From a virus, in IMG/VR virus record IMGVR_UViG_3300041809_001176: DNA of 14,732 nt, one strand, 5' to 3'. The notes under the pieces are model-generated. The model was not told where the DNA came from. It saw only the letters and a list, made by a program, of their open reading frames with translations, and made no database searches. This document shows, in pieces, positions 7,428 to 13,578 of the stretch (positions are counted from its first letter, which is position 1; each line of letters starts with the position of its first letter). The position numbers and the translations under genes were made by a program.

Positions 7428-7892
7428 TCAGATGAAAAATAACAGGTGCTGAACTTTGGGCTTCCCGGCGAGAATGACAAGCACATCTTCAACGCACTCA
7501 TCAACCCCGTATGGAAAGTTGCGACCGGCAGTCCAGTTGTACGTTGGGTTCTCACCCTTTTCGTACGCAGTGTGAAGGACGCTCCAGTCGTTGACGTAGG
7601 AAAGAAACTGCCGCAACTCAGGCAAAAGGGTGACGCCCTTTACGGCTTCCAGTTCCTGAATCCTGAGTATGACCGCCTTGGTCTTTTCATTCAGCGGAAA
7701 GGCATACTGAGTCACGTACTCCTGCCATCCCGGCAGCTTACACGCACCCTGAGTATACAAGACAAAGTTGCCGTTCTCAATCTTCTTCGCCGCCGTGTAG
7801 CAAAAGCTATGAAAGGCGATGCGGCTGGTCAGAAGCTGGCCGTGAAGTTCGCGATACAGCAGGTATTGGCGCTCTTCAAAAGAGGTTGTCAT
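7428..7892 (-). CDS. Hypothetical protein of 154 aa (MTTSFEERQYLLYRELHGQ...).
   Basis: Its start ATG overlaps the TGA of the upstream gene (ATGA at 7889-7892). The longer track ORF (to 8030) would overlap the upstream gene by 140 nt. Confidence 0.55.
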   Translation of the reverse strand: MTTSFEERQYLLYRELHGQLLTSRIAFHSFCYTAAKKIENGNFVLYTQGACKLPGWQEYVTQYAFPLNEKTKAVILRIQELEAVKGVTLLPELRQFLSYVNDWSVLHTAYEKGENPTYNWTAGRNFPYGVDECVEDVLVILAGKPKVQHLLFFI

Positions 7893-8263
7893 TTCGTCAC
7901 CACCATAATCCCGTCTGCGCTGCCGCGCTTCCGTGCTAACGATTCCATGGGGGTCTCGGTGCGAACACGCGGCTCCATGGGGGTCACTTTGAATCTGTTG
8001 CCGTATTTGACTTTCTGTTCGCACAACCACTCGTATGCATTTTCAGGAGTCACCGTGGATGCGTCCACTTCCGCTAACTGCGGAAACTGCCGAAGCAATT
8101 CCGGGGCACATTCCTGACAAGCTTCACCGATTTCATGAGTGAACACCGGATGTCCGAGCACGAATTGCAAGATGGTGTAAAGGGAGCCGATGTCCCGAGC
8201 GAGAAATTTAGTAGTGATAACACTGAGGATGTCGCCCAAGGTGAAGTGTTTTGTCTTTGCCAT
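7889..8263 (-). CDS. Hypothetical protein of 124 aa (MAKTKHFTLGDILSVITTKFLARDIG...).
   Basis: RBS AGGAGA. The second ATG has better spacing. It lies directly downstream of the Ku terminator. Confidence 0.55.
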   Translation of the reverse strand: MAKTKHFTLGDILSVITTKFLARDIGSLYTILQFVLGHPVFTHEIGEACQECAPELLRQFPQLAEVDASTVTPENAYEWLCEQKVKYGNRFKVTPMEPRVRTETPMESLARKRGSADGIMVVTK

Positions 8264-8272
8264 CATTCTCCT

Positions 8273-8302
8273 GCGGAAAAGCCGGAGGCCGAAGCCTCCG
8301 GC
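8273..8302 (-). terminator. Rho-independent terminator following the Ku gene.
   Basis: Perfect 9-bp stem GCCGGAGGC/GCCUCCGGC with tetraloop (plus-strand CGAA) at 8281-8302. On the minus strand it is followed by UUUUCC. Confidence 0.55.
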
Positions 8303-8319: not shown

Positions 8320-9357
8320 TTATGCTGCCGCTGACTTCGCCTTGCCCTTGTTGGCCGCGAGAGCGCCCGTGAGAAGTGCCATCAAGTCCATCTTCTTGTC
8401 CACGGTCGGGGTCGGTGCCAAGACCGGGGCGGTAGGAACGTTGCCCAAAATCTTGTCGTTGATGAGCCCCTTGTACTGGCGCATGGACAGATCGGAGTAG
8501 TCGGCGAGATTGAAGGTGCCGCCCATGGATTCGACCAACTGAGTCGCGATGTCCACCAGAGCCGCTTCCTTGGGACCGTCAAGGTTGACCTTTGTCCACT
8601 TGTCGCAGCCGCGAACTTCGTTGTCGAAGTACAAGTAGCTGACGATCATGCCACCGTCGTCAACGCCGCCGTAGGGGCGGATAACCACCGTCTCCTGACG
8701 GCCACGCTGGCTGGTCTTGGCGATGGCAACCTTGTTCGTCTCCACCATGGACTGACGCAGGATAGCGAACGAGACCTTGGAAACTTCGTCGGCAGGGGCG
8801 ATGTACTCGGAAGCCGCGAAGTACACAGGGTCGATTTCGTTCACGTCCACGAACTTCTCGATAGGCATCGACTTCTCGTTGGCAACTTGGCAAGCCTTCT
8901 TCTCGTCGTCGGTGACGATGGCGAATTCGCCGTCTGCATACTCGTAGCCCTTGAGAATGGCCGCACGTTCCACGGCTTCGTCGCACACCGGGCACTTCAT
9001 CGCACCCTGCTTGAGTTGCTTGTAGTCGGGGGCGGAAACCGGCGTGTACTTGGCTTTGGATTTGCTGAGAGTGCCAGCGGCGATGGCGGCGTCAATCGCG
9101 TTGTTCGCAGCAACCGCCGCCTCAATCTCGGTATGGTTGCAAGCGTGAACCATGTGCAGTTCCACTTTCTCAGGCTCAGTGGACTTGAAGGTTTTGACGT
9201 TCATGTTCAGAACGTTAAATGAAAGAACACCCGTCCAAGTCGCACGAGAAACCATTGCCTTCTCGGCGGGAGCGGTGCTCAACTGTGGCTTGGTGGGAGC
9301 GAGGCCAGCGGCGAGTGCCGCAGCCAGAAGGTCGGTTTGTGAGTTCAGAGTAGCCAT
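8320..9357 (-). CDS. ku: Ku-like DNA end-binding protein of 345 aa. The Ku core begins at M35 (MVSRATWTGVLSF...), preceded by a 34-aa Ala-rich N-terminal extension. The C-terminal tail is Ala/Lys-rich.
   Basis: Bacterial Ku signatures: RATWTGVLSFNVLNMNVK (compare RAIWKGxISFGLVNIPVK), CPVCDEAVERAAILKGYEYADGEFAIVTDDE, and FVDVNEIDPVYFAASEYIAPADEVSKVSFAILRQSMVETNKVAIAKTSQRGRQETVVIRPYGG (compare IDPIYFDRSYYLAP...[33 protein letters not shown]). Confidence 0.8.
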   Translation of the reverse strand: MATLNSQTDLLAAALAAGLAPTKPQLSTAPAEKAMVSRATWTGVLSFNVLNMNVKTFKSTEPEKVELHMVHACNHTEIEAAVAANNAIDAAIAAGTLSKSKAKYTPVSAPDYKQLKQGAMKCPVCDEAVERAAILKGYEYADGEFAIVTDDEKKACQVANEKSMPIEKFVDVNEIDPVYFAASEYIAPADEVSKVSFAILRQSMVETNKVAIAKTSQRGRQETVVIRPYGGVDDGGMIVSYLYFDNEVRGCDKWTKVNLDGPKEAALVDIATQLVESMGGTFNLADYSDLSMRQYKGLINDKILGNVPTAPVLAPTPTVDKKMDLMALLTGALAANKGKAKSAAA

Positions 9358-9363
9358 ATCCTT

Positions 9364-9393
9364 AGTATACCTGCAACCGGGGGGGTTTGGCTA
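9364..9393 (-). promoter_or_regulatory. Candidate promoter TAGCCA-N18-TATACT, with the TATACT box ending 6 nt before the Ku ATG.
   Basis: Minus strand reads ...CCAAAAACTAGCCAAACCCCCCCGGTTGCAGGTATACTAAGGATATG. The rIIA gene has the same architecture and spacing. Confidence 0.4.
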
Positions 9394-9420
9394 GTTTTTG
9401 GATATATTTTTTCGAAAAAT

Positions 9421-9462
9421 TTGAGTAAAAAGAGACCGGGAGAGCCACTTGGGCCCTCCCGG
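9421..9462 (-). terminator. Rho-independent terminator following rIIB.
   Basis: An 11-bp stem with one mismatch (CCGGGAGAGCC/GGCCCTCCCGG) and loop ACTTG at 9436-9462. On the minus strand it is followed by UCUCUUUUUACUCAAAUUUUU. Confidence 0.5.
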
Positions 9463-9533
9463 ATTAAGGTGCATTTCGAGGAGAACGATGGGCGGTGAGC
9501 GGAAGCAGAACCACCCTGTTCATGCACCTTAAA

Positions 9534-10763
9534 TCAACCATCGTAACCGTCGTCCCACTCCTCTTCATCGTCGTCAGCAGGAGCCACAGCGCGGCTCAGA
9601 GTAGGCCGAGGATACGAAACCCCGGCTTCGCCGATGTCGTCATTGCCTTGCAGCTTGGCAATCGCAATCAGAATCCGGTCAATAACCTCTTGCGACGGCT
9701 TCACGCACCGCTCTGCGTTATAGACCTCTTGCAATTCCATGCCAGCGGCTGCACGAACCTGACCCATGGTGAGCCCTGCCGCCTCACGAGCGAAGCGAAG
9801 AGGGTTGTCAAACAGCTTGGACTTCGACGGGGCGATGTCCATCTGGCTGAACTTGCGGAGCCAGCCGACAAGACGTTCAGTGGAAGCCTTGGTGAAGCTG
9901 GCCGCAGTCATTTTGCCACGCCGCAGGAGGCGCTTCACAGTCGGTAGAGCCTTGACCTTCTTGATGATGTCGAAGCGGCAATCAGGAACCTCAATCAGCG
10001 GCTGCATCATGATGGCAGCATCCGCCGTATCGGAGACCAGATTGGAAATTTCTTCGATGCCGACTTCCGCAAAAACTTCATACGTCCAGCAGCGGAACTT
10101 GCGGTGACCGAAGCCCAAAGGGCTGGCAACCACGTCGGCAGGATTGACCTTGACAACCATGATGTGGTTGCCGTGGCTGTAGAAGCTGCCGATGTAGCCA
10201 CGAACGCAAACGTGGTAACCACGGGAGCATTCGGTGTACTCACTCGGATCAACTTCGGAACGAGCCATCAAGGGACGAGCGCCAATGTGATTGTCCACCT
10301 TGTGGGTGTGCTTGTCCTTGTAGTTCGCATCGACCACCTTGTAACCGACGATGCAGCCGTCACTGGTGATAGCGTAGCGACCGGCGTTAACCCAGTCGTA
10401 AATCCGGTTCACCGTATTCACGTCTTCCTGTTGGTACAGGTTGTCCATGAAGCGGAGCCAACTCACGACAGACTGGCCGTGCTCGATGAGTTCGAGAATT
10501 TTGGCCGAGAGGCTGTTGTCCACCTTCTGATTGCGGTAGAACACGCCACCAGAATTGACAGTGACCTTGCCATGGGTCCGCTCTGCCAATTGAGCACTGA
10601 GGTCAACCAGCTTGGGAATGCGTGACCAGTCGCCGCGTTCCAGAGCCCGGTGAAGTTGCTTGAAAGTTGCTTGCCCCTTGGTCGCTTGGTGAGTCTTGCC
10701 ATCCAGCACCACGGCCACGTAGTCGTCTTGAAGAACGTACGGAATTGCAGTCGCATTAGACAT
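9534..10763 (-). CDS. rIIB: rIIB-like protein of 409 aa, with a C-terminal HTH-like segment.
   Basis: Matches to recalled T4 rIIB: ECSRGYHVCVRGYIGSFYSHGNHIMVVKVNPADVVASP versus TCSRGLHVCSKSYIRHFGSSTDRVVKVKVHPRDVVSIP. Also GKVTVNSGGVFYRNQKVDNSLSAKILELIEHGQ versus GDVRIEGGSLFYQNIELRSGLVDRILDSMEKGE, and DGCIVGYKVVDANY versus DGYFYAWKVVRSNY. Its start overlaps the rIIA stop by 8 nt, giving the T4 gene order rIIA then rIIB. Confidence 0.8.
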   Translation of the reverse strand: MSNATAIPYVLQDDYVAVVLDGKTHQATKGQATFKQLHRALERGDWSRIPKLVDLSAQLAERTHGKVTVNSGGVFYRNQKVDNSLSAKILELIEHGQSVVSWLRFMDNLYQQEDVNTVNRIYDWVNAGRYAITSDGCIVGYKVVDANYKDKHTHKVDNHIGARPLMARSEVDPSEYTECSRGYHVCVRGYIGSFYSHGNHIMVVKVNPADVVASPLGFGHRKFRCWTYEVFAEVGIEEISNLVSDTADAAIMMQPLIEVPDCRFDIIKKVKALPTVKRLLRRGKMTAASFTKASTERLVGWLRKFSQMDIAPSKSKLFDNPLRFAREAAGLTMGQVRAAAGMELQEVYNAERCVKPSQEVIDRILIAIAKLQGNDDIGEAGVSYPRPTLSRAVAPADDDEEEWDDGYDG

Positions 10764-13314
10764 TGACGGTCTCCTCTTCGTCTTCGGTTTTGGTTTCGTC
10801 GTCGGTTATCACTCGAACATCGGTCAAAACCAACCGTCTGTTCTGCTCATCAGTGTACCGGATGTAATCCACCAAAACGGTCTTCTCTTCTATTGTACCT
10901 GAACCGTAGGTGTTTCGGCTACAAATTTTCAGGATTGGGTAATTTTTTATTACCTTCTGCCACGCTTGATTGTAGTCCGCTGTGTTGTTGATGGCAATCC
11001 CAAGAGTCTTCGCGAGGGTTACCAGATTGGCGTGACCACGACGGTCTGCGGCCTCCGCTTTATGGATAGCCAGTGCGAACTGACGAAACGGACTATCCAC
11101 TGAAAGCAGTTGAGGATGCTCCGCCACGTATTCCATGACTGACTTCCAGTTCGAAGAGAACGGCTTCACAGCGAGGCTCAGTTCCATTTCCTTGGCCGGG
11201 GTGATGGTTTCAGTCACCCGAGCCCTTACGAAGGGCAGGAAGTCGATAAAGAGCGGGTCCGGGAGCAGTTTGGAGCCAGCCTTGATGCCGAAGATGCCGA
11301 AGATGGGAGTGTCAGCACTAATCTCCGGGAACAGATCAGACTCACGAACCGTATTCACGAAGTCGATGAAATTTCTGGCGTAGTAGAACCCCGGAAGGTT
11401 CATGGGTTCAATTGAACTACCGCTCACCATCACATAAAACTTCGTCGCTGTGGAATCATTGAGTTCAAAATTGTCGTCGCCCTTTTGCCACTGTTTCTTC
11501 CAACCACCACCGCTGCTACAGCGAGTGCGTTCAGCGTAGTGACGCAGGATGCGAACGTTCATCCGTTCACGCTTGACAACCTGCACGTCCTTCTCAGCTT
11601 TCAACAGCGGATCAAACTTCGCCTTGAGTTCAGACGCTTTGACCACCGGAGGATTGCCGATGCGGTCGAGTAGAGCAACAGCTTCATCGCCAGCGCGACC
11701 CATGGGGATGCTCCGAGTCAGCCGGTTAATCACCAAAGCCTTGCGATACTTGCCAACGGTAAAGGCACCCTCGCCGGTCCCTCCCTCGGAGATTCCATCC
11801 CACGCTTTTTGGGCTGCGATGCGGTCACCTTGAAGCAGGTAGCTAACGTATCTGTCAGCCTTCGTGTTGAGGTCGTTAATCACAAAAATTACGCCTTGGT
11901 CTACACTCAACTTGAGGTCGTAATCTTTCTTCTCTGTGATGTTAGACCCCAAATCGCGGAAAGCCTCAGCCCTCTTTGCCTGAGTTGCAAATTCGAACAA
12001 CGGCTCTTTCTTCGCTTTCTTTGCCGAGCGCCGGTCGCTGTAACGGAATGCTGTCACTTCGATGTGCTGATAGTCGAGTTCGTTAATGACGACCGTGTTG
12101 CTGCCTTCCTTGGTGATGCCCTCCAACTTGAAGAAGGTGTATGCACCATTCAACAGACCACGATTGTAGGCGTCGTTGACCAGAGCCCCCATACCCGGTT
12201 GCATGGTCAATTCACGAACCTTGAGACGTGCCTCCCATCCTGTCTTGCAGCCGTCAATCTGTTTCTTGATTTCTTCAAGCAGTTTGTCTTGCACGATGTC
12301 CAGACGGGCGAGAATGTTGTGAATGGTTTTGTCGTCCAATTGCAATGCTTCGCGGGACGCTGCCACACTCAACTCACCGATGTTGAAGAACAAGTCGATG
12401 GGCATCGAGACCAATTTCTTCTGAGCCTCGGTCAGGCGGGACTGGTCAATGTTGCCGACGCTGTACTGCACGTTGCCTTGAATCGCACGGAGAGCATCGC
12501 CCTGCGCCGTATCCGCATCGGTACGCATACCCCACAGGTCAGTTTTCACCGAGTAGGTGGGGTTCTTGATAGTGACCGCCTTGTTCAACTTCGGACGCGG
12601 AAAGAAAAATTCGAAAACGTTCGCAGCCTTGTTTTCGAACTCCCAAATATCGCGACGGTCAACTGGGAAGGAAACCTCCAAACCGTTCGGCTCGTTCGGC
12701 GTGTCGATAACCTGCATCGGTACCACGGTTGGAAATCCATTCTTGACCATGGCAGTGTAGATGTAGGTGCGGCCCTCATAGTGGTTGGTGACCGTGAAGC
12801 CGCCCGACTGCGTAGAGCCATCGCCAGTTTTCTTGTTGGTGTAAGCGAAGGGCGATTTGGAGCCAAGACCGAGAGCACCGATGAATTCGTTGCTCTGATT
12901 TTTGTCGGAGGCGAAGTAGGTGCAATAGAGACGCATCACAGCGTCATAGTCACCCGTGTGGTTGCAATCTTCACAGTAAATCTCTGCCGCCGATCCCTTG
13001 CCAATGATGCCAGTCCCGTGGCAAGTCTCGCACCCACCTTTGATGAAACGAAGGCCGGTACCAGTATCCTTGACGGTGAAGATGGGGGTGAATTGAGTGG
13101 GAAGATGAACCTCAAAAGGCTCATGTCGCTTGCCAGCAGCCACATGGGCGTCCCATGCATTGCATGAGAGTTCACGGATAACGGCTCCAATTTTATCGCC
13201 GTACAGGCCGCTGGATAAGATTTCGAAGGTGACGGTGGATGCTGCAATCTTGAAGCTGGATGGCGCTGATGCGTTTCCAATCTTGGCGTCTGTGCCTTGG
13301 GTTCCTAGCTGCAT
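10756..13314 (-). CDS. rIIA: rIIA-like protein of 852 aa with an N-terminal GHKL (Bergerat-fold) ATPase domain.
   Basis: FKIAASTVTFEILSSGLYGDKIGAVIRELSCNAWDAH versus T4 rIIA [41 protein letters not shown] N-box E..NA.DA, G1 box VKDTGTGL and G2 box GALGLGSKSPF are present. The ATG at 13312-13314 has RBS AGGAG at 6-nt spacing. The track start at 13329 is a GTG without an SD. Confidence 0.85.
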   Translation of the reverse strand: MQLGTQGTDAKIGNASAPSSFKIAASTVTFEILSSGLYGDKIGAVIRELSCNAWDAHVAAGKRHEPFEVHLPTQFTPIFTVKDTGTGLRFIKGGCETCHGTGIIGKGSAAEIYCEDCNHTGDYDAVMRLYCTYFASDKNQSNEFIGALGLGSKSPFAYTNKKTGDGSTQSGGFTVTNHYEGRTYIYTAMVKNGFPTVVPMQVIDTPNEPNGLEVSFPVDRRDIWEFENKAANVFEFFFPRPKLNKAVTIKNPTYSVKTDLWGMRTDADTAQGDALRAIQGNVQYSVGNIDQSRLTEAQKKLVSMPIDLFFNIGELSVAASREALQLDDKTIHNILARLDIVQDKLLEEIKKQIDGCKTGWEARLKVRELTMQPGMGALVNDAYNRGLLNGAYTFFKLEGITKEGSNTVVINELDYQHIEVTAFRYSDRRSAKKAKKEPLFEFATQAKRAEAFRDLGSNITEKKDYDLKLSVDQGVIFVINDLNTKADRYVSYLLQGDRIAAQKAWDGISEGGTGEGAFTVGKYRKALVINRLTRSIPMGRAGDEAVALLDRIGNPPVVKASELKAKFDPLLKAEKDVQVVKRERMNVRILRHYAERTRCSSGGGWKKQWQKGDDNFELNDSTATKFYVMVSGSSIEPMNLPGFYYARNFIDFVNTVRESDLFPEISADTPIFGIFGIKAGSKLLPDPLFIDFLPFVRARVTETITPAKEMELSLAVKPFSSNWKSVMEYVAEHPQLLSVDSPFRQFALAIHKAEAADRRGHANLVTLAKTLGIAINNTADYNQAWQKVIKNYPILKICSRNTYGSGTIEEKTVLVDYIRYTDEQNRRLVLTDVRVITDDETKTEDEEETVNV

Positions 13315-13331
13315 GATGTTCTCCTGCACCT

Positions 13332-13361
13332 AGTATACCGGCTGTACCCACCTTTTGGCTA
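13332..13361 (-). promoter_or_regulatory. Candidate promoter TAGCCA-N18-TATACT upstream of rIIA, with a 17-nt leader containing the SD.
   Basis: Minus strand reads GAATACTAGCCAAAAGGTGGGTACAGCCGGTATACTAGGTGCAGGAGAACATCATG. Hexamers and spacing are identical to the Ku promoter. Confidence 0.4.
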
Positions 13362-13365
13362 GTAT

Positions 13366-13578
13366 TCAGGAAATTTTTTTAGCTTTATCGACCAAATTTG
13401 AGTAGAGCAAAAAGGCAGCAAAAGCCACCGCAGCGAATAAAGCAGGGACAAACCACGATAGACCGGGGTTGAAAAAGTGGGCAATTACGAGGAGAATTGT
13501 GGACACCGACCCGGACACCCACAACCCGTGGACGAGTCCAATCAGTAAAGCTAGATTCTGCGATATGACAGGCTTCAC
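13366..13578 (-). CDS. Small two-TM membrane protein of 70 aa, with a GTG start overlapping the upstream stop (GTGA).
   Basis: Strongly hydrophobic (LALLIGLVHGLWVSGSVSTILLVIAHFF...FVPALFAAVAFAAFLLY). There is no in-frame ATG. It sits between the Cys-rich gene and the rIIA promoter. Confidence 0.4.
   Translation of the reverse strand: MKPVISQNLALLIGLVHGLWVSGSVSTILLVIAHFFNPGLSWFVPALFAAVAFAAFLLYSNLVDKAKKIS

Follow-up and report, generated by a model that had tools for sequence, protein, structure and literature searches.

A T4-type rIIA-rIIB operon and a bacterial-type Ku gene as neighbouring, probably separate transcription units in an uncultivated jumbo-phage-like lineage

Three genes homologous to phage T4 rIIA, phage T4 rIIB and bacterial Ku follow one another on the minus strand of the IMG/VR virus record IMGVR_UViG_3300041809_001176, a stretch of 14,732 nucleotides which is called the window here. 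They occupy positions 10756..13314 (rIIA, 852 aa), 9534..10763 (rIIB, 409 aa) and 8320..9357 (Ku, 345 aa). These open reading frames (ORFs) stand at the coordinates given by a first-pass annotation, which was made from the letters alone and described a T4-type rIIA-rIIB pair immediately upstream of a bacterial-type Ku gene; profile searches and direct comparison with the T4 proteins bore this description out. A megablast search with the 5-kb region found no match among 50,697 deposited phage records, and the window has no close relative among deposited phages. The relatives used for comparison are metagenomic loci, which are designated by L and a number.

The rIIA protein matched PHROG 612 ('RIIA') with an E value of 6e-105, and BLASTP aligned its residues 12-377 with residues 11-330 of T4 rIIA at 31% identity (E 8e-39). 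Its N-terminal 350-430 residues showed 30-37% identity to rIIA of T4-like phages by tblastn, and BLAST similarity to T4 rIIA was not found in the C-terminal half. Scans of Pfam and NCBIfam were silent for both rIIA and rIIB, and PDB searches with single sequences returned matches at chance level only; the lack of profile similarity that would have refuted the first-pass assignment of these two genes is thus answered by the other profiles and not by Pfam. A profile built from 39 rIIA homologs matched the N-terminal ATPase domain of TRAP1, Hsp75 and HtpG (E 3e-8), and the three motifs of this domain, the N box RELSCNAWDA (13176-13147), G1 DTGTGL (13068-13051) and G2 GALGLGSKS (12879-12853), all align to Hsp90/TRAP1. 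The GHKL ATPase N-terminus which had been assigned to a T4-type rIIA is thus confirmed by PHROG 612, the T4 alignment and the Hsp90-class profile. Because the Hsp90-class matches span 236-329 aligned residues, which is the GHKL domain together with a transducer-like domain, rIIA can be placed in the 'GHL' clamp class, beyond the mere presence of GHKL motifs. Judged from its sequence, it is a predicted dimerising-type GHKL-plus-transducer ATPase of the Hsp90/topo II/MutL/MORC class. The best structural matches were Hsp90 chaperones, and the other relatives were topo II, MutL, MORC and topo VI-B.

The window protein and T4 rIIA have the N-terminal 370 residues in common, GHKL motifs included, while the C-terminal halves are not alignable and a zinc-finger-like insert is present in the window protein only. 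This insert (residues 93-124, 12943..13038, minus strand, delimited by alignment) is DnaJ-like, with the pattern GGCxxCxGxG...CxxCxxTGDYD, and lies inside the GHKL domain between G1 and the next helix. It is found in the window's clade and is absent from most rIIA proteins, that of T4 among them. In some relatives the insert at this site is free of Cys. The start of rIIA is the ATG at 13314, which is preceded by a GCAGGAG Shine-Dalgarno leader, with GGAG ahead of the start, and this leader is conserved in L003 and L011. The GTG at 13329, proposed as an extension by the ORF lister, was rejected since it overlaps the -10 hexamer.

The second gene matched PHROG 609 (E 1.7e-56), and residues 15-234 of its product (10721-10062) aligned with residues 87-307 of T4 rIIB at 30% identity (E 1e-37). 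PF26926 (Phage_T4_rIIB) is also its precomputed annotation. The ATG of rIIB overlaps the stop codon of rIIA by 8 nt (ATGTCTAA), an arrangement that points to translational coupling, and the order of rIIA followed by rIIB is the same in T4 and in all relatives. The conserved core of rIIB ends near residue 235. About 2,670 deposited phage records encode rIIB, and in nearly all of those listed the tblastn match ends at residue 233-246. The C-terminal 175 residues had no tblastn match in the 50,697 deposited phage records, and this extension is conserved throughout the metagenomic clade. No solved structural relative was found for the fold of the core.

In the AlphaFold2 (AF2) model, residues 320-372 of the extension (9648..9806, minus strand) form a four-helix unit. 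Nearly all of its Foldseek matches were helix-turn-helix (HTH) proteins of the XRE/Cro type (HigA2, C.AhdI, HipB, SinR, 434 Cro), with a probability of about 1 and a TM-score on the target of 0.5-0.64. Pfam HTH_31 stayed below threshold for the window protein (E 0.026), and it reached 33 bits in the homolog P0068, which passes the gathering score (GA), and nearly did so in L005 (26.7 bits). The segment was also aligned in register with 434 Cro by hhalign. The model and these comparisons support an XRE-type HTH in the C-terminal part of rIIB. It is followed by an acidic tail, DDDEEEWDDGYDG (9575-9537, minus strand).

The first-pass annotation had regarded a C-terminal HTH-like segment as an addition that T4 rIIB does not have. 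At that position this holds, since the C-terminal XRE-type HTH and the acidic tail belong to the window protein, but a pure accretion fits less well than a swap, because T4 rIIB has an HTH of its own at the N-terminus. The first 50 residues of T4 rIIB match HTH_7 and HTH_28; the HTH_7-like part comprises residues 7-45 and scored 26.7 bits against a GA of 23.8 when the 86-residue segment was scanned alone. This segment (1-86) has no counterpart in the window rIIB, whose sequence starts at the core. An HTH thus accompanies the rIIB core in both cases, but its type and position vary with the lineage, being N-terminal and resolvase-type in T4 and C-terminal and XRE-type here. This fits with the work of Iyer et al. 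2021, who listed rIIB among the specific transcription factors of jumbo phages (PMC7824862).

The Ku gene passed the models for its family clearly. It matched PF02735 with an E value of 1.3e-32 and 113.6 bits (cut-off 25), scored 176.8 bits with TIGR02772 (Ku_bact), which is above the equivalog cut-off of 150, and also matched PHROG 4873. In an alignment of 10 phage-clade and five bacterial Ku proteins, an N-terminal extension of 37-45 residues was present in every phage-clade member and in no bacterial Ku; in the window it comprises residues 1-37 (9357-9247). A start at Met35, which would give a bacterial-like N-terminus, was rejected, because every phage-clade Ku has kept the extension and the distance from the promoter favours the ATG at 9357. 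A Cys/His cluster, H71/C73...C122/C125 (9156-8977), is at least 90% conserved within the phage clade, and a variable insert between its two halves is longest in the window. At the C-terminus the protein retains MDLMALL (8391-8371) with the DLMxxL motif common to bacterial Ku; D324 is invariant and L329 and L333 are nearly invariant across phage and bacterial Ku. The C-terminal region of bacterial Ku contacts LigD, according to the literature (PMC12848934).

Among deposited phages, relatives of this Ku were found in 87 records, of which 86 are from mycobacteriophages and one is a faecal contig. The Ku proteins of the mycobacteriophages Omega and Corndog (PHROG 4873) are likewise phage-encoded and bacterial-type, with the PF02735 core, and their genes are the nearest deposited phage Ku genes. 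They are only 23-25% identical to the window Ku, which differs in its N-terminal extension, in its Cys/His cluster with the insert, and in belonging to an rII-bearing jumbo-phage lineage. Ku of bacterial non-homologous end joining (TIGR02772) shares the core and the C-terminal DLMxxL with the window Ku. The window Ku is 26-33% identical to those aligned, adds the N-terminal extension, ends in no more than a very short basic tail, and is phage-encoded, under a phage promoter, with no LigD gene alongside. With Mu Gam, to which the first-pass annotation had compared phage Ku, the proposed activity would be alike, namely DNA-end binding and shielding from exonucleases early in infection, as a functional analogy only. 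Membership of the Mu Gam family was rejected: the Pfam scan (E <= 0.01) gave PF02735 only, and at 345 aa the protein has the full length of a bacterial-type Ku, C-terminal region included.

The relatives encode a minimal ATP-dependent DNA ligase of 266-271 aa (PF01068, E 7.5e-14 and 2.3e-11), which is not a LigD. It lies 5.7-8 kb downstream of Ku in L002 (18978-19778), L004-6, L026 and L028-29, and is 41% identical between subclades.

These features bear on one alternative for the role of Ku, that it mainly circularises the injected genome by end joining with host LigD, in the style of Omega and Corndog, and that its place beside rII is incidental. A precedent is cited in PMC12848934, namely mycobacteriophage Ku, which exploits host LigD for genome circularisation. 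The retained C-terminal motif, the Omega-like mycobacteriophages as the nearest deposited carriers and a promoter of probably early type (see below) point in the same direction. Against it stand the contigs of the relatives, which reach 340-430 kb and are jumbo-phage-like, and their own minimal ligase in place of LigD. In many jumbo phages packaging is headful with terminal redundancy and the genome does not circularise, which also counts against this alternative. We consider it unlikely.

Transcription signals divide the region. The sequence TAGCCAAA-N16-TATACTA is present in exactly two copies, at 13361-13331 and 9393-9363, where 0.09 matches were expected by chance, so the statement that rIIA and Ku share an unusual promoter is correct. 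The rIIA promoter region (13331..13404, minus strand) has an 11-nt TACTCAAATTT box (13404-13394) in an A/T-rich UP-like tract, a -35-like TAGCCA (13361-13356) and a -10 TATACT (13337-13332), and its layout is repeated upstream of rIIA in L003 and L011. The Ku promoter (9363..9427, minus strand) likewise has the TACTCAAATTT box (9427-9417), an A/T tract, TAGCCA (9393-9388) and TATACT (9369-9364).

The gap between rIIB and Ku is 176 nt long, and it contains a terminator hairpin and then the complete Ku promoter. The intrinsic terminator 3' of rIIB (9426..9462, minus strand) is a hairpin (9462-9436) with an 11-bp G+C-rich stem, followed by the T-run UCUCUUUUU, and was calculated at -22.9 kcal/mol (z -4.3). 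Since both a terminator and a promoter are in this gap, rIIA-rIIB and Ku are predicted to be two separate transcription units and not a single rIIA-rIIB-Ku operon, and the earlier view of a contiguous module would not hold as far as it meant one unit. A second hairpin lies 3' of Ku (8277..8302, minus strand; stem-loop 8302-8281) with a 9-bp GC stem, a UUCG loop and UUUU (-26.4 kcal/mol for a 55-nt stretch, z -4.2). It is a probable terminator, possibly leaky, which the consensus terminator scan passed over owing to its short T-run. The claim that each block has its own terminator is thus supported. A DUF7736 gene (7889..8266, minus strand) has its ribosome binding site and ATG (8266) directly after the Ku hairpin. 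A further candidate terminator upstream of rIIA (13431-13415) was rejected, being weak (z -1.8) and inside an upstream 70-aa ORF.

The promoter type is not private to rIIA and Ku, and this idea was rejected. The form TAGCCAAA-N16-GTATACT also precedes a third gene of the window (582-612) and at least seven genes in 21 kb of L002. The type thus marks a temporal class, and it is weak evidence for a shared role of rII and Ku; the co-regulation from which such a role had been proposed is real as a shared promoter, and loses force because other genes have it too. The Ku ATG stands exactly 6 nt after TATACT in the window, L002 and L011, and the 6 nt differ among them (AAGGAT, ATAAAT, GTGTGT). The same spacing was seen in more genes, in the window (582..573, minus strand), in L002 (15045, 17427, 18965) and in L011 (9461, 16747). 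This recurrent arrangement of -10, 6 nt and ATG suggests leaderless mRNAs, that of Ku included. The L002 genes with this spacing include a ligase-like gene.

The TACTCAAATTT box and the HTH of rIIB lead to another reading, in which the HTH is a transcription regulator of the block, acting for example at the box, and Ku is a regulatory target of rII and not its partner. The XRE-type HTH is conserved across the clade, rIIB is in the list of jumbo-phage transcription factors cited above, and the box is limited in the window to the rIIA and Ku promoters. On the other side, L002 and L011 show no visible conservation of the box before rIIA or Ku, the box lies in a generic A/T-rich UP-like tract, at least two matches to it appeared in 4 of 200 shuffles, and neither promoter showed an inverted repeat of the operator kind. 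This regulatory reading seems to us very unlikely.

The lineage of the window is known from metagenomes of soil, peat and wetland. Proteins related to its rIIB, rIIA and Ku were found on metagenomic contigs of 75-431 kb, some of them 340-430 kb, which indicates a jumbo-phage lineage. Scans of IMG/VR with a single Ku or rIIB protein gave 0 relatives, and an alignment-based scan then gave two loci. The exact Ku sequence is present on a 40.8-kb ENA contig, and the window is identical to ENA contig k141_122410 (L001) through rIIA, rIIB and Ku. From the gene of an MVP-like protein onward (window about 1..2715, L001 16643-19360) there are mismatches and a 3-nt indel, so the window belongs to another genome or assembly that is closely related.

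Linkage of rII and Ku was assembled across the related loci and verified by tblastn. Every phage-clade Ku with sufficient upstream DNA has rIIB upstream, and rIIA too where the contig extends that far. In the window's subclade (L001-3, L011-12, L016-21, L023) rII and Ku are adjacent, and the Ku proteins are 41-83% identical. In a distant subclade (L004-9, L026, L028-29; Ku 33-36% identical) one to five unrelated genes (0.6-4.5 kb) stand between rIIB and Ku. There the flanking genes differ, and in L004-L009 another motif, TTACCCG...N...GTAGAGAG, replaces TAGCCAAA...GTATACT before rIIA, Ku and the genes between, while the linkage of rII and Ku persists. In L009 (4268-6518) what separates rIIB from Ku includes an intein-split RtcB RNA ligase. 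In L005 (a 342-kb contig) and L028 (143.6 kb) the block is about 6-10 kb from the contig end, and a terminus or repeat could be nearby; that the block marks the genome terminus is doubtful, however, for the contig ends do not coincide and the window's subclade has no such pattern.

Does this linkage mean that rIIA, rIIB and Ku are one system for DNA ends? In such a system a clamp of rIIA would act with rIIB on phage DNA and, together with Ku, would mask or process ends or intermediates of DNA to which Rex-like sensors respond or nucleases are drawn. The linkage itself, kept down to about 34% Ku identity though flanks and promoter motif change, is in its favour, and so are the DNA-binding HTH which rIIB has both in T4 (N-terminal) and here (C-terminal), the topo II, MutL, MORC and topo VI-B relatives of rIIA, most of its structural relatives being proteins that manipulate DNA, and the TACTCAAATTT box which the two promoters of the window share beyond the class consensus. 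RexA is also known to bind DNA (PMC11077077). Other evidence speaks against it. A strong terminator separates the two units, and in the distant subclade unrelated genes, including the intein-bearing RtcB, have come between rIIB and Ku. The best structural matches of rIIA, the Hsp90 chaperones, act on proteins. Ku relatives in 87 deposited records against rIIB in about 2,670 mean that rII works without Ku almost everywhere. Lastly, all linked loci belong to one lineage, for which inheritance of gene order suffices. One joint system is, in our estimate, an unlikely explanation. The more specific form, that rII acts on DNA with rIIA as an ATP-driven GHL clamp and rIIB as its HTH adaptor, and with Ku hides or processes ends and intermediates from RexA-like sensors and end-dependent nucleases, is quite unlikely.

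A shared role in end protection or anti-exclusion had been suggested for the block by the first-pass annotation. The persistence of the rII-Ku linkage while the flanks turn over speaks for it, but may simply be gene order inherited within one lineage; the class promoter is weak evidence for it, the separate units speak against it, and it stays a conjecture. A joint rII-Ku mechanism, possible and unsupported, is a minority hypothesis because of the terminator between the units, the inserted genes, the lack of Ku in almost all rII phages and the single lineage.

We think that the locus probably contains two adjacent, separately transcribed counter-defence units of an uncultivated jumbo phage, which belong to the same temporal class and are not a demonstrated joint machine. 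The first would be the translationally coupled rIIA-rIIB operon, in which rIIB, made of the conserved core, the C-terminal XRE-type DNA-binding HTH and the acidic tail, would be the partner of rIIA. The pair most likely neutralises abortive-infection or exclusion systems of the Rex type. This role is proposed because of homology with divergent rII pairs that have been tested by experiment: lambda RexAB is countered by rII modules of five genera that have less than 40% identity (PMC11879866). RIIB itself can also trigger a gasdermin/CARD defence (PMC10312443).

The second unit would be Ku, with a leaderless mRNA that starts from another copy of the promoter type found before rIIA. The protein is predicted to form the usual ring on double-strand DNA ends, where it would shield linear phage DNA, or breaks made by host nucleases, from degradation of the RecBCD/AddAB type. 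It could also recruit a ligase, either host LigD or the small ATP-dependent ligase of the relatives, to reseal or circularise DNA, as the C-terminal motif used by bacterial Ku is retained. We infer early expression of both units as probable from the sigma-70-like promoter and by analogy with T4 rII. On this view rII and Ku would be adjacent as parts of a block of counter-defence genes that the lineage has conserved.

Some observations weigh against this interpretation of two counter-defence units. The -35 TAGCCA matches TTGACA poorly, and an activator encoded by the phage could act there instead, in which case middle and not early timing would be expected. The ligase of the relatives was not found by tblastn in the window or in the 10 kb downstream in L001. 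The rII clade of L013 and L014 (rIIB 38% identical) lacks Ku within 8 kb, which means that rII can function without Ku.

Several other genes surround the block. Downstream of Ku, an R2K-clade ATP-grasp protein (PF14243, E 3e-11) is encoded at 5612..6412 on the minus strand, and it is kept in L011, L017, L019 and L020. The MVP-like protein mentioned above has 850 aa (866..3418, minus strand; Pfam MVP_shoulder E 6e-24, Vault_3 E 5.6e-10). It is kept in the window's subclade, with 861 aa and 58% identity in L011 and 818 aa on a 413-kb contig, and in the distant subclade a Band_7 protein is found downstream of Ku in its place. A tRNA gene at 6522..6595 (minus strand) scored 47.4 bits with Rfam and was called by ARAGORN as tRNA-Asp with anticodon ATC. 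It is atypical, since in its anticodon loop CAATCAG position 33 is A instead of the usual U and position 34 is A. Downstream of rIIB, T4 has denB.1, denB and ndd, whereas the window has Ku.

To our knowledge, what rIIA and rIIB do biochemically has not been established in the roughly 70 years since they were discovered. The family of each component described here is known; what sets the region apart is the domain variants and the conserved rII-Ku neighbourhood. They give handles on rII, which are the GHKL-plus-transducer class predicted for rIIA, the interchangeable HTH of rIIB, and a Ku gene kept near rII in a deep jumbo-phage lineage. Phage-encoded Ku is also extended beyond the mycobacteriophages to rII-bearing jumbo phages. 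If the linkage is inherited gene order only, the locus would be an ordinary counter-defence block with some unusual domain variants. If rII does act on DNA together with Ku, the linkage would be the first genomic clue to the biochemical activity of rII.

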